Of a DNA stretch of 64,000 nt, positions 4,066-61,885 are shown piece by piece (position 1 is the first letter of the stretch; each line of letters opens with the position of its first letter). Source of the DNA: Octopus vulgaris (taxonomy: Eukaryota). Below the pieces are notes generated by a model, which worked only from the letters and a program-made list of their open reading frames with translations, ran no database searches and had not been told where the DNA came from. The position numbers were made by a program, and so were the translations under genes. Location of the stretch: assembly GCA_951406725.2 (NCBI GenBank), contig OX597834.1, positions 8,184,001 to 8,248,000 on the forward strand, in the 5' to 3' direction.

Positions 4066-4369
4066 CCTACACACACAGAGACACTAACTAAACATAGACG
4101 CACATAGAGATATACGCATGCGCAAATGAAGACACATACAATAGAAATACAAAATGGCTGATGGTTAGTAAGGAGAGACACAAATAAGAAAGGAGAAAAC
4201 AAAGGACCACTGATGCGGTCACAGGGGTGTGACGAAAGAACTCTGGCCGAAATAAGATTAAAATTAATGTAAAAAAATAAACAACACTGAAGCAAAGTAA
4301 CATCAAATATATAGTACGTGTGTTTTTATTGGATAAACTGGCAAAATGACCATTCCGAAATACAACAAT
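4066..4369 (+). mobile_element. Penelope-like pLTR remnant, family P1
   Basis: homologous to 26931-27225 (minus); contains a hammerhead-like fold at 4204-4248. Confidence 0.6.
4204..4248 (+). ncRNA. variant minimal type-I hammerhead (core CUGAUGC)
   Basis: ggacca-CTGATGCG-GTCACA-gggg-TGTGAC-GAAA-gaa-CTC-tggcc; stem II perfect, stem I imperfect, core A9 replaced by C. Confidence 0.45.
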
Positions 4370-4836
4370 CTCTCTATCATATTTATACATGTACGGTTGC
4401 GCACTTGTGGTAATGTGTACTTGTGTCCTCCAATAGACCTCAAAGAGGCTCTAACTTCCAGTACTCTGCCCACATCGAAATTTTCTCTTTTGTATTTATG
4501 CCATCACAAAATCTTCCAATCCCCACCATAGTGATGCTGTTTTGAATGATTCACATTATATTAGATATATATCAGAGCACGCTTAACATTATGCTTTGTT
4601 CCCCCTTTACGTTGCATTCCCATTTGTGCTCCAAATAAATATACGTCTAAAGCTCCACTGTTTATCGACTTGACTGGCTCCATGGCAGTTCGATGAGGTT
4701 TGCTGTGATAGCTAACTGGATAAGGTAGGTGAAGTTTCAGTTCCCATCCATTTGAACACTACTTTGTATTATCTATACTAAACATATTTTATTTCTCCCA
4801 CTCTCACTCAGTCACTCAATCAATGTATGTGCGTGT

Positions 4837-4952
4837 ATATATATATATATATATATATATATATATATATATATATATATATATATATATATATATATAT
4901 ATATATATATATATATATATATATATATATATATATATATATATATATATAT
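4837..4952. repeat. (TA)n microsatellite
   Basis: pure TA run. Confidence 0.98.
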
Positions 4953-4959
4953 ACATATA

Positions 4960-5175
4960 CATCAAAATTTAGATTCAGATGAATATGGTACTTAAGTCAA
5001 AGGCACCAGAATTTTGTATTGGATTATCCATATAAATCAAATGGGGTGTTTATGATTAAAATAAGCAACAACTATATCCAAGGTAGAGTAGTACAATTGT
5101 TTCATGCTAATAAAATGAAGTAGCATGAAACAATTGTACTACACTACCTTGGATATACTTTGTTGCTTATTTTAA
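4960..5175. mobile_element. Penelope-like foldback remnant (P2-related), with hairpin 5056-5175
   Basis: ~54-bp near-perfect inverted arms, each carrying the hammerhead 3' half GAAAC-AATT-GTA; minus strand of 4975-5055 resembles 31398-31475; TA tracts on both sides. Confidence 0.7.
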
Positions 5176-5231
5176 AGTATATATATACACACGCACGTAT
5201 ATATTTATATATGCACATACAAACACATATA

Positions 5232-58500: not shown

Positions 58501-60103
58501 CTACATACATACATACATACATACGTACATAGATATGCACGTACCTACAAATGTATGTATATGTATGGTTCTGCATATTTGAACGCTACAAATTTTCACC
58601 GATGCCTCTGGCAAATGTAGAAATCATTAGAGCCAGCATCTCTCTCATTGCAATAATTTTCGCCATCGTCGCTTCTACACCCTACCATCCTCCGTCCCCA
58701 TCCTCTTCATCACCGTCACCCTCACCATCGTCATCGTCACATCACCATCATCACGCTCAGCATCATTGTTTTAATCTCAATCTCCTTTATTAACATCAAT
58801 TAATCATATTATACTTTCATTCTTCATGAACAAATTTAATTATCCATTTATTATATTTTCACATTATTTTGCTTCGTTTTGTACAACGCTTGATTGTGTA
58901 CGTATGTGTGAGTATCCTATCAAAAGTCTATTCGCATGCGAGGGTGTCTGTGCTTATATATATATATATATATATATATATATATATATATATTATATAT
59001 ATATAAACATATATATGTATATATGCGTGTATGATTTGTGTACGCATATACATATCTCTCCACACATATTCTTACATGTATATATACATATATAAGTATA
59101 AACGTACACGTGTGTACATATATATGTGAGTGTGTGTATACTGTATATATATACATATTTATACATACATGTAATTATATTTTATATATATATATATATA
59201 TGTACGCATGAATATACATATATATATATGTATATATATATACATATATCTGCGTATATGTACGGATATATATGCCTATATATATGTATATATATGATCA
59301 CACACAAACACACGCAAACACACAAACACACATATATATATACAATATATATTTATATATGCATATATGTATAACATATGTGTATTACATATAAACATAT
59401 ATATATATACAAAAATATATATATATAAATATATATATACACATACATATATATATATATATATATATATATATATATATATATATATATATATATATAT
59501 ATATATATATATATAAATACTTATATATATGTAAATACGTATATATATATATATATATTTATTTATTTATTTATACACATTTCCTTGCCTATATGTGTGA
59601 GTGTGTGTGTTTTTTTTTTTGCGTGTTTAATAGCAAGATGGTGAATGAACGTGTGTGTGCGTCATATTGTAGCCTCCCCTGTGTGTTGGCTAAAATTCTG
59701 TAAAAAACTTTATTGTAATTTAATGAAAGATATTTTAACGAAGTATCTTTTTATCTCTTTTTTGACTTCGTTTCCAACAGTCCCGTAGTGTATTCGATTC
59801 ATGTTTCGCCTTTCTTGTGTATTTATTCCGTGGAAGAAATCATTTAATATGTTGGCAAATACACAATTATTTTATTTTATATCATAGTATTGGGCAGTGG
59901 ATATTTATTTATTCTGTGAATTTCGTTTTTATTCATGTGGGCGGCACTGACAGTTCTTGCGTTGCTACAGTTCTTTATTGCTGTCAGTTTCGAGTGCTGA
60001 CGTTGACTGCTTCCTGATGGAGGATGGTGATGATAAGGCTGATGATAATTATGACGATGAACAATGATCACGATGATAATGGTAGATGTATTCTTGGTGA
60101 TTT

Positions 60104-60435
60104 GGTTGTTGCTGTTGCTGTTGAGCGTAGCGGTCTTCGTCCAGTGGGAGAAGTCCGAACCGTGGTCCTTTGCTATTCGTAGGACCCGCAGAAGAGAAAG
60201 CAGGTCAACCCCCGACACCGAGACGGATGCGTAGGAATTCGGGGAAAAGAAATAGGAAGAACGAGTGAGAGAAAGTTGGAGCGAAAGAGTACAACAGTGG
60301 TCGCCACCACCCCCTGCCGTGGAGCTTTATGTGTTTTCGCTCAATAAACACACACAACGCCCGATCTGGGAATCGAAACCGCGATTCTCCGACCGCGAGT
60401 CCGCTGCCCTAACCATTGGCCCATTGCGCCTCCAC
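60104..60435 (-). mobile_element. SINE family D variant with an alternative 3' module and CAA/CAG tail
   Basis: head and core align to family D up to cttcc, then unrelated sequence. Confidence 0.85.
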
Positions 60436-60952
60436 TGCAGTTGCAGTTGATTATAATGATGTGATGATGATGTCGACGACGACAATGGTAATGGTAATAG
60501 TGATGACTATGATGATAGTGATGACGAAAATTAAAATGATAATGATGATGACGACGGCGATGACGATGATTATGAATATGTGATCATTAGCGATCAAAAC
60601 GCTGAACAAAATCTGTTATCATGAATAATGGTTGACATTTAAATCGCCGAAGACATCTCGCAGCGTCTGATTTCCTATGTTGTATCGTTTCGCCTATGAG
60701 CAGCTTCTCTGGAGCTGATGTGTAATCAAAGTTTTTCCCAATTCTGATGAAATTATAGTTTCAGGCAGTCTACAAACAGGACAACATTAAACAAATTTCT
60801 CTATTATTATATTATATATGAACGATTTTAGAAATCGTATTGAAGGAGTTTTTGATAGATTTGTAGCATAGCCGCTTCGTGGCTTATTCTGGTATATTTA
60901 GTAAATTCAATGAGAACATACAGACTGGCTTGTGTCTTCATATATATATATA

Positions 60953-61401
60953 TGGAATGGCTGTGTGGTAAGTAGCTTGCTAACCAGCCACATGGTTCCG
61001 GGTTCAGTCCTACTCCGTGGCATCTTGGACAAGTGTCTTCTGCTATAGCCTCGGGCCGACCAATGCCTTGTGAGTGGATTTGGTAGACGGAAACTGAAAG
61101 AAGCCTGTCGTATATATGTATATATATATATATATATATATATATATATATATATATATATATATATATATATATATATATATATATGTGTGTGTGTGTT
61201 TGTGTGTCTGTGTTTGTCCCCCTAGCATTGCTTGACAACCGATGCTGGAGTGTTTACGTCCCCGTCACTTAGCGGTTCGGCAAAAATGACCAATAGAATA
61301 AGTACTGGGCTTACAAAGAATAAGTCACGTGGTCGATTTGCTCGACTAAAAGCGGTGCTCCAGTATGGCCGCAGTCAAATGACTGAAACAAGTAAAAGAG
61401 T
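60953..61401 (+). mobile_element. SINE family A
   Basis: full-length copy with expanded internal (TA)n. Confidence 0.92.
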
Positions 61402-61422
61402 ATATATATATATATATATATA

Positions 61423-61885
61423 TATAAGATTCGTTTTCGTAATAAGATAAAAAATCAAGGCTGTATAGATATTAGAGCCTTTATAGATAGAAGGTCTTAC
61501 AGCTGTTTCTAGGATATTTATTAATAATATTCCTTCATCGGAGACGGTGTTAGAGGAAAGTTAAATCATAGTTTAGATGTGAAATTAACTATTAGTTAAC
61601 TTTCTTCTCACACCGTCTCCAATGAAGGGATATTATTAATAAATATCCTAGAAACAGTTGTAAGATCTTCTATCTATAAATGCTCTAATATCTATACAGC
61701 CTTGATTTTTTTTTTATTTTATTACGCAAAAATACTCTTATATACACGCTAACATAGAACCAACTTTAAATCCTTCATTCGCAATATTACCGAATCTGGA
61801 AGTTAAATATGGTCTGTCTATAGCACTTATGGAGAATTACCTGACACCTTTGGGTCTCAATGACAAAATTATCTCTTATAATCCA
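61423..61885. mobile_element. Penelope-like foldback element, family P8
   Basis: ~140-bp inverted arms 61423-61564 / 61596-61744 with a ~30-nt spacer; the plus copy runs on to (TA)n at ~61885. Confidence 0.85.
61494..61545 (-). ncRNA. type-I hammerhead with CCGAUGA core
   Basis: GTCT-CCGATGA-aggaatatt..aaatatcct-a-GAAA-CAGCT-GTA-AGAC; palindromic stem III ACAGCTGT; sister copy at 61615-61666 on +. Confidence 0.75.

Follow-up and report, generated by a model that had tools for sequence, protein, structure and literature searches.

Hammerhead-bearing islands in the window

The window is a stretch of 64,000 bp of the Octopus vulgaris genome (assembly GCA_951406725.2, contig OX597834.1, positions 8,184,001–8,248,000 of the forward strand). 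It contains short non-coding islands that carry hammerhead ribozyme folds and most of which belong to Penelope-like element (PLE) families. A preliminary description, made from the sequence alone, had listed 12 islands of about nine families. All 12 were found at the places given, they group into nine families, and they hold 15 copies or half-copies of the type I hammerhead proposed as their common fold, whole or partial. The islands and two further pieces absent from that description are listed below (pLTR stands for pseudo-long terminal repeat and ORF for open reading frame; L-numbers are loci fetched from the octopus genome).

4018–4387, plus strand: 3′ end (pLTR) of family P1, 89% identical to the 3′ end of L217; hammerhead at 4207–4246 with an A9C core; the final bases are an ORF start
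4965–5175, both strands: inverted pair of the 5.0 kb family; half hammerheads at 5088–5107 (minus) and 5123–5142 (plus), the CUGANGA box lost by truncation
11285–11475, plus strand: F11 (Hydra clade), truncated 3′ end; hammerhead at 11317–11377
16765–16970, plus strand: F11, truncated 3′ end; hammerhead at 16790–16849
18880–19050, plus strand: F11, truncated 3′ end; hammerhead at 18909–18969
21027–21275, minus strand: F21.0 (Neptune-type); hammerhead at 21118–21175 with a U3:A8 core; inverted tail piece at about 21190–21275
21552–21767, minus strand: F21.6 (Neptune-type); minimal hammerhead at 21655–21689
26872–27333, minus strand: second P1 copy; hammerhead at 27051–27090; adjoining plus-strand tail piece at 27224–27333
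29240–29460, minus strand: F29.2 (Neptune-type); minimal hammerhead at 29332–29367, family core A6U
29462–29734, both strands: decayed inverted pair of a tenth family, absent from the preliminary description; half-motifs at 29556–29569 (minus) and 29624–29637 (plus)
30925–31515, both strands: inverted pair of F30.9 (Hydra clade); hammerheads at 30954–31040 (minus, partly decayed) and 31275–31364 (plus, intact); optional tail
37972–38572, plus strand: F38, a full non-coding monomer of about 555 nt at 38013–38572 preceded by an inverted tail piece; hammerhead at 38342–38422 (plus), a corrected position for the one described at 38 kb, with the predicted cut after 38417
41039–41104, minus strand: fourth F11 piece, tail only, no hammerhead; absent from the preliminary description
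61427–61885, both strands: inverted pair of F61.4 (Hydra clade); hammerheads at 61494–61545 (minus, intact, U4C) and 61615–61666 (plus); optional tail

The type I topology and the conserved core hold for six families. The proposed core, C(U/C)GANGA, is replaced by variants in three: A9C in P1, A6U in the family at 29.2 kb and U3:A8 in the family at 21.0 kb. A strict descriptor (C(U/C)GANGA, stem II of at least 3 bp, GAAA, an insert of 0–8 nt, UH and stem I of at least 4 bp) matched two of the 15 copies, namely 31275–31364 (plus) and 61494–61545 (minus), and gave no match in any of 40 local dinucleotide shuffles of the window. Two more copies (4207–4246 and 21118–21175) retain an intact family core with a stem I too short for the descriptor. 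Nine of the 15 carry a decay change relative to the commonest letters of their family, as read by eye: C3U in the P1 copy at 27.1 kb, an eroded stem II in the F11 copies at 11.3 and 16.8 kb, G12A in F11 at 18.9 kb, a broken stem III in F21.6 at 21.7 kb, G8A in F29.2 at 29.3 kb, stem changes in F30.9 at 31.0 kb, U16.1A in F38 at 38.4 kb and G5A in F61.4 at 61.6 kb. The CUGANGA box is missing from both copies at 5.1 kb, which retain the end of stem II, GAAA, the palindromic stem III, the cut site and stem I. Compared with the best relative of each among the loci fetched, the window copies show 85–95% identity and are therefore old insertions; apart from the two descriptor matches they are decayed, truncated or short in stem I, and most would be predicted to be inactive.

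When three islands were run singly against Rfam Hammerhead_1, a check suggested in the preliminary description, one was matched (31276–31363) with 25.6 bits and an E-value of 1.3e-4, short of the gathering score of 34, and the other two were not. A scan of the whole window showed no hammerhead among the matches listed (150 of 405), which were simple-repeat noise, mostly microRNA models. Scans at the Rfam level miss most of these folds. The tenth family has one related inverted pair among the loci, in L075 (68–69% identity). A hairpin at 24975–25055 with a bulged CUGAUGA was not counted: GAAA and NUH do not follow it, and no relative over that part was found among the loci.

Linkage of the islands to Penelope-like genes

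Eight PLE protein queries gave no match in the window itself, in agreement with the preliminary description, which had seen no reverse transcriptase (RT) or GIY-YIG ORF there. Elsewhere in the genome the upstream extension that it had suggested reached such ORFs for seven of the nine families. In each of the seven the island is collinear with an endonuclease gene located 0.5–1.7 kb upstream, and RT was also found for six, the exception being F21.0. Thus, seven of the nine families are 5′-truncated 3′ ends (pLTRs) of PLE RT/GIY-YIG genes, the proposed PLE origin is borne out, and mobilising partners are seen.

An intact full-length element was found for P1. Locus L217 holds an intact ORF of 1,309 aa (L217:1513–5448, in G000:C1 near 59.39–59.40 Mb, minus strand) with RT and, at its C terminus, a GIY-YIG domain, located between two hammerhead-bearing pLTRs. 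The two cores are 4,598 nt apart, and the upstream predicted cut is followed at 101 nt by the ATG. A Pfam search with this ORF gave no match. Four other copies are 98–99.5% identical and a fifth is 90–97% identical; P1 is a young family.

Three families (F11, F30.9 and F61.4) were assigned to the Hydra clade. For F11, L081 contains an upstream pLTR followed by the ORF start and a Hydra-type RT (R-W kept, the third RWK residue changed; DKT read by eye from the DNA). Taken alone this locus would be ambiguous, since fragments of a different Hydra family adjoin the far end of the ORF. Two more loci, L059 and L066, also show the ORF start next to F11, joined to it, and in L065 a Hydra endonuclease ends 916 nt before the hammerhead core. 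For F61.4, the endonuclease lies 986 nt upstream in L162 and an inverted RT was found in L147. For F30.9, the endonuclease lies about 1.5 kb upstream in L283, with further links in L288 and L293 and RT in L369; the Hydra RT that adjoins a copy of F30.9 in L027 was taken to be a separate insertion and disregarded. The Hydra hallmarks, namely a CxCX5C linker, no CCHH, and C-terminal CxxC and CxH, were seen in L065, L162 and L299/L302.

Three other families (F21.0, F21.6 and F29.2) may be called Neptune-type by their endonuclease, with a CX2-5CxxC linker and CCHH (L366, L364/L365 and L353/L420); the RT was compared by eye with Neptune1_Ap for F21.6 only. The F21.0 endonuclease lies 895 nt upstream in L237, with links also in L241 and L257, and passes the Pfam GIY-YIG cut-off. 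That of F21.6 lies 1,718 nt upstream in L258, just below this cut-off, with RT in L364 and a further link in L365. For F29.2, RT and endonuclease are located upstream in L353/L420 and L338. At least three PLE lineages are involved, not the single system that had been supposed. The preliminary description had named Neptune as an example clade and had missed Hydra.

A first Hydra endonuclease search reached other Hydra families, and a window family was the gene's own 3′ end in none of 20 extra loci taken from 120 lower-ranked matches. Loci L084–L112 (for example L086, L092 and L112) hold a further Hydra family. By eye, its 3′ end appears to have a core box lengthened by one base, CUGAAAGA, and a stem II with a long insert; its copies are old and none passes the descriptor. 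Another Hydra family (L165, L175, L177, L181 and L182) has a hammerhead 230–330 nt after the endonuclease, with a canonical core and a 7-nt stem III. The 3′ untranslated region (UTR) of F30.9 in L283 and L002 contains an internal tandem duplication of about 200 bp upstream of the hammerhead.

The F38 and 5.0 kb families

F38 is a non-coding head-to-tail unit of about 550 nt with one type I hammerhead per monomer. At 27 of 41 loci the copy continues 5′ into the unit's own 3′ tail, and six loci start a second lap; no array exceeds about 1.6 units. Two cores 532–541 nt apart occur at two of the 41 loci, one core in each having decay changes. Among 42 matches one pair of stem I is T-A in 19, C-G in 21 and T-G in 2, with no mismatch. 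The possibility that the 5′ ends of F38 are bounded by the cut site was rejected, since two copies run through the site. Contigs of four runs, presumed to be RNA, cover F38 and hold no starts, ends, strand or circle junctions. None of the 41 loci is collinear with a PLE ORF. F38 is the only non-autonomous, retrozyme-like family, and it is likely mobilised by a PLE protein. In L328/L423 a copy lies within 9 bp of a Hydra ORF, a weak hint at the helper. The wording "truncated or non-autonomous (retrozyme-like)" of the preliminary description therefore divides: truncation applies to the seven linked families, and a retrozyme-like, non-autonomous nature fits F38 only.

The 5.0 kb family has a complete fold in L292, L089 and L393 and resembles F30.9, with the same tail and ribozyme layout. 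It is likely an eighth set of truncated PLE 3′ ends.

The anatomy of F38 and the missing ORF link of the 5.0 kb family raise the question of whether the islands are mostly independent non-autonomous retrozymes spreading via small circular RNAs. Animal retrozymes, as described in the portions of the published work covered (10.64898/2026.07.22.740005), are derivatives of pLTRs and often occur as dispersed monomers, which also suits this explanation. The collinearity with an endonuclease gene refutes it for seven families, and in these families the 5′ ends are ragged, with a shared upstream length from about 30 to more than 1,500 nt. For the islands as a whole we consider it very improbable.

Abundance of the folds in the genome

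The genome comprises 2.8 Gb in 227 contigs and is rich in (TA)n tracts. It was searched for eight families (all except the 5.0 kb family), 40 candidates being scored per search. The first look gave 697–3,438 candidates per family, and the islands are multi-copy.

Density was estimated in a blind sample of 42 stretches of 10 kb (420 kb) at round coordinates, uninspected beforehand and not formally random. The nine families account for 34 insertions there, one per 12 kb, compared with 13 in the window, one per 5 kb; F11 and F38 are each represented once, P1 twice, the 5.0 kb family four times, and F30.9 and F61.4 not at all. The descriptor revealed 27 intact folds: 13 canonical, one U4C, eight A6U and five U3:A8. 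Six shuffles of the sample gave 0–1 match per class and 0–2 overall. Nine further core classes had 0 or 1 match each, and folds with C3U only or G8A only were absent from the sample. This corresponds to about 64 intact folds per Mb, or about 180,000 genome-wide: about 93,000 canonical with U4C (51,000–157,000), 53,000 A6U (23,000–105,000) and 33,000 U3:A8 (11,000–78,000), intervals that are too narrow because matches cluster. The dense radiation proposed earlier is thus supported. We did not find a hammerhead density for the octopus genome in print.

In 1.78 Mb of fetched, PLE-enriched DNA, 249 non-identical fold matches formed 39 clusters, 17 of them with at least two members. Of the 32 clusters whose insert is even and at least 4 nt long, 20, as counted by eye, had a perfectly palindromic stem III, although the descriptor required only its outer pair. 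More hammerhead families with a U3:A8 core and a palindromic stem III were seen in L225, L376, L135, L058, L253 and L282.

The hammerhead motif is small, Rfam recognised one of three islands and only below threshold, and the variant core classes were picked after the families had been seen. The folds might accordingly be viewed as chance look-alikes in AT-rich repeat tails, such as the ends of short or long interspersed elements (SINEs or LINEs). Against this, 5–14 folds were observed per class as opposed to 0–1 in shuffles and in eight other core classes with a single change, stem sequences unrelated between families pair within each of them, and the fold occupies the known position of PLE hammerheads. 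An origin by chance is therefore extremely unlikely.

Insertion pattern and proposed mechanism

The proposed preference for TA repeats was confirmed: 177 of 253 copies from eight families end at (TA)4+, compared with 4.9% of background positions. The proportions for the Hydra families F11, F30.9 and F61.4 are 24/34, 39/45 and 19/29. The two P1 copies of the window had been described as lying outside (TA)n; at the family level P1 is also TA-targeted (19 of 30 copies). Six of the eight families (P1, F30.9, F61.4, F21.0, F29.2 and F38) have two preferred 3′ ends, and 39 of 210 loci, a few overlapping ones still counted, have copies on both strands. The hammerhead is only 50–290 nt from the 3′ end and is therefore retained even in short copies. 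Truncation, inversion and an optional tail are PLE features in the portions of PMC8557442 covered.

Taken together, we assign a probability of roughly 85% to the reading that seven families are truncated PLE 3′ ends, probably with the 5.0 kb family as one more, and that F38 is a non-coding repeat likely mobilised by PLEs. By analogy with the Anolis Poseidon element, the GIY-YIG domain of the element's protein would nick AT-rich (TA)n DNA. Reverse transcription would then begin at one of two internal RNA sites, 50–290 nt beyond the hammerhead; two internal start sites were reported for Poseidon in vitro (PMC11167929, portions covered), and the two preferred 3′ ends of the octopus families would be explained by such sites. 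Early termination would leave islands a few hundred bases long, and F38 would be mobilised in trans by a PLE protein. The fold is predicted to cleave a tandem transcript, probably weakly, as a dimer or with the help of the protein, because stem III is mostly palindromic and, in the tests covered (PMC4209133), motifs of this kind did not cleave unless they were dimers or their stem III was extended.

Several points weigh against this reading. In four of six examples both stems, I and II, were reproduced by energy folding, which missed stem I at 61.5 kb and the proximal stem I at 21.1 kb. Flanks of (TA)n are not PLE-specific: the presumed CR1/L2-type LINE at 38.6 kb also has them. The clades were named from motifs and from published alignments compared by eye, not from an RT tree. 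None of the fetched copies of the 5.0 kb family reaches an ORF. The one Hydra ORF adjoining a copy of F38, in L328/L423, is inverted, decayed and perhaps a separate insertion, and the compensatory change in F38 stem I is probably one inherited event. Finally, in the portions of PMC11167929 covered, the Poseidon hammerhead was not needed for insertion in vitro, and catalytic mutants had no effect.

Core variants and the role of the ribozyme

Of the three variants, U3:A8 is known and active (PMC4209133 and PMC3088659, portions covered). It was found in 23 of 25 F21.0 copies and in seven of the 39 clusters, so that the tertiary pair 3:8 covaries. A6U is characteristic of F29.2 (U6 in 46 of 55 pattern matches), A6 being kept in its sister copy L190 and in F21.6. 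Of the 79 P1 copies examined, eight could not be parsed; A9C was found in 67 of the other 71 and in both pLTRs of the intact element L217. An alternative P1 fold, in which the long outer helix serves as stem II, was rejected by eye because no stem I would remain; energy folding agreed with the fold adopted here. No natural PLE hammerhead with A6U or A9C was found in print, the study of PLE hammerhead variants by Luense et al. (2017), which lay outside the material covered and may report them, being excepted.

The fixation of A6U and A9C, the latter in a young element, allows another explanation, which is compatible with the PLE reading: in some families the hammerhead need not cleave any more and would persist as a structural signal or one that binds protein, and this would have let the two variants become fixed. 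In the portions of the papers covered, natural A6C has low activity and cleaves slowly (PMC3088659), the catalytic mutants of Poseidon still insert (PMC11167929), and Naiads spread without canonical hammerheads (PMC8557442); the first two make relaxed catalysis a serious rival. On the other hand, in the F29.2 subfamilies (84–93% alike) all four bases occur at the free position N7 and the base at the cut site is variable, whereas C3, G5, G8, A9 and GAAA are constant, and the covariation of the 3:8 pair and the lack of C3U-only and G8A-only folds in the blind sample also argue against this explanation. We regard relaxed catalysis as possible, somewhat short of an even chance.

Position of P1 among Penelope-like elements

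The L217 ORF has a CX2-5CxxC linker, which 65 of the 88 homologues parsed share, and its C-terminal endonuclease is of the CCHH type, like that of Neptune/Nematis. At E < 1e-20, 141 homologues were found, two of them labelled sea cucumber. The RT has DKS (35 of 41 homologues with the motif parsed) where Neptune/Nematis have DKG, and it contains a fingers insertion of about 70 aa, while Neptune/Nematis are distinguished by DKG and no fingers insertion. The spacing of motifs A to C is 173, and 168–180 in 88 of 120 among the matches listed, compared with 96 in the F30.9 Hydra RT and about 103, by eye, in Neptune1_Ac. In the portions of PMC8557442 covered, such an insertion is found in Naiad, Chlamys, some Coprina and TERT and not in clades with a C-terminal endonuclease; in the parts of its supplement covered, RKDHK has no match and the single DKSG match is not the RT motif. 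A sequence search of PDB gave only two weak RT matches at E < 0.01, and a profile comparison with Hydra RT gave a probability of 0.2%. P1 is left unplaced; we did not find a clade for it in print, and it is possibly an undescribed one.

Comparison with known systems

In its basics the arrangement is a known one and does not call for a new system: PLE hammerheads, (TA)n targeting and an octopus Hydra element with a hammerhead are already published. The comparisons below refer to the portions of each source covered. Cervera and de la Peña (2014, PMC4209133) described the same type I fold with an unpaired base after position 9, a very small palindromic stem III and U3:A8 covariation; a genome had several consensus families, whose copies were mostly single and came from truncated PLEs, and there were inverted pairs 100–700 bp apart. 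Their count for Xenopus tropicalis is about 9,000, compared with the extrapolated 180,000 in octopus (the descriptors differ), and family-wide A6U and A9C are absent from the portions covered. Axolotl has up to 120,000 hammerheads (PMC7229834), so the absolute number in octopus has a precedent, in a far larger genome.

Hydra-1_Obim from Octopus bimaculoides (Craig et al. 2021, PMC8557442) shares the CxCX5C linker, the lack of CCHH, CxxC and CxH, and the (TA)n target with our Hydra families. The F11 RT could be aligned with it motif by motif by eye, and the two hammerheads are alike in a CUGAAGA core, a stem III of odd length and U at the cut site. F11, F30.9 and F61.4 are distinct families; their 3′ UTRs measure about 0.9–1.5 kb, and stem II of F30.9 has a long insert. 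The supplement rows covered list only one octopus Hydra family. Neptune1_Ap, in the alignments of the same work, has a CX4CxxC linker and a CCHH-type endonuclease, and the F21.6 RT motifs follow it closely by eye; F29.2 differs in A6U, and F21.0 in U3:A8 and a 2-bp proximal stem I.

Animal non-LTR retrozymes (PMC7229834; 10.64898/2026.07.22.740005) resemble F38 in being non-coding, head-to-tail and mostly dispersed monomers with one type I hammerhead each. F38 differs in its length of about 550 nt, in its arrays of at most about 1.6 units and in PLE-type tails and inversions in (TA)n, and it is known here from DNA. The main text of the 2020 retrozyme paper (PMC7229834), as covered, does not mention octopus. 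A 2026 repeat annotation of O. vulgaris (PMC13282606) reports 31 recently active Penelope-like families, and its main text, as covered, does not contain "ribozyme", "hammerhead" or "Hydra". What is added here is the density, the two core variants that are fixed in their families, a single derivative of retrozyme-like nature and a PLE lineage left unplaced.

The PLE hammerhead is weak in vitro and was dispensable for insertion in the one reconstituted element. The octopus genome offers natural pairs, namely sister families with A6 and U6, an intact young A9C element, and a non-coding derivative beside likely helpers, which make the role of the hammerhead in vivo directly testable. Tentatively, and with more doubt than confidence, the genome may be viewed as a natural mutagenesis library that holds about 10^5 hammerheads of dozens of PLE families. 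Among its successfully amplified families, A6U (Neptune-type, tens of thousands of copies) and A9C (recently active, of an undescribed clade whose RT fingers carry an insertion of telomerase size) would break the consensus; these would be either new active cores or proof that PLEs need no cleavage.

Other features of the window

A very common SINE-like repeat of about 400 bp with an internal (TA)n tract often adjoins the islands.

10698–11135, 13316–13748, 17381–17801, 20127–20539 and 60940–61426, with shorter pieces: SINE-like repeat
38615–38940 (minus strand) and 40964–41041: presumably the 3′ end of a CR1/L2-type LINE, read by eye from RT motifs
43067–43636: presumed mariner transposase fragment, by eye from motifs
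47025–47483 and 55146–55532: presumed RTE-type LINE 3′ end, by eye from motifs

The CR1/L2-type LINE at 38615–38940 ends at (TA)n with a hairpin followed by GAAA, lacks a CUGANGA box and has nine related copies among the loci. In addition, a 184-bp unit of a common dispersed repeat is arranged in tandem, with three copies at 22684–23242 and four at 44643–45382.

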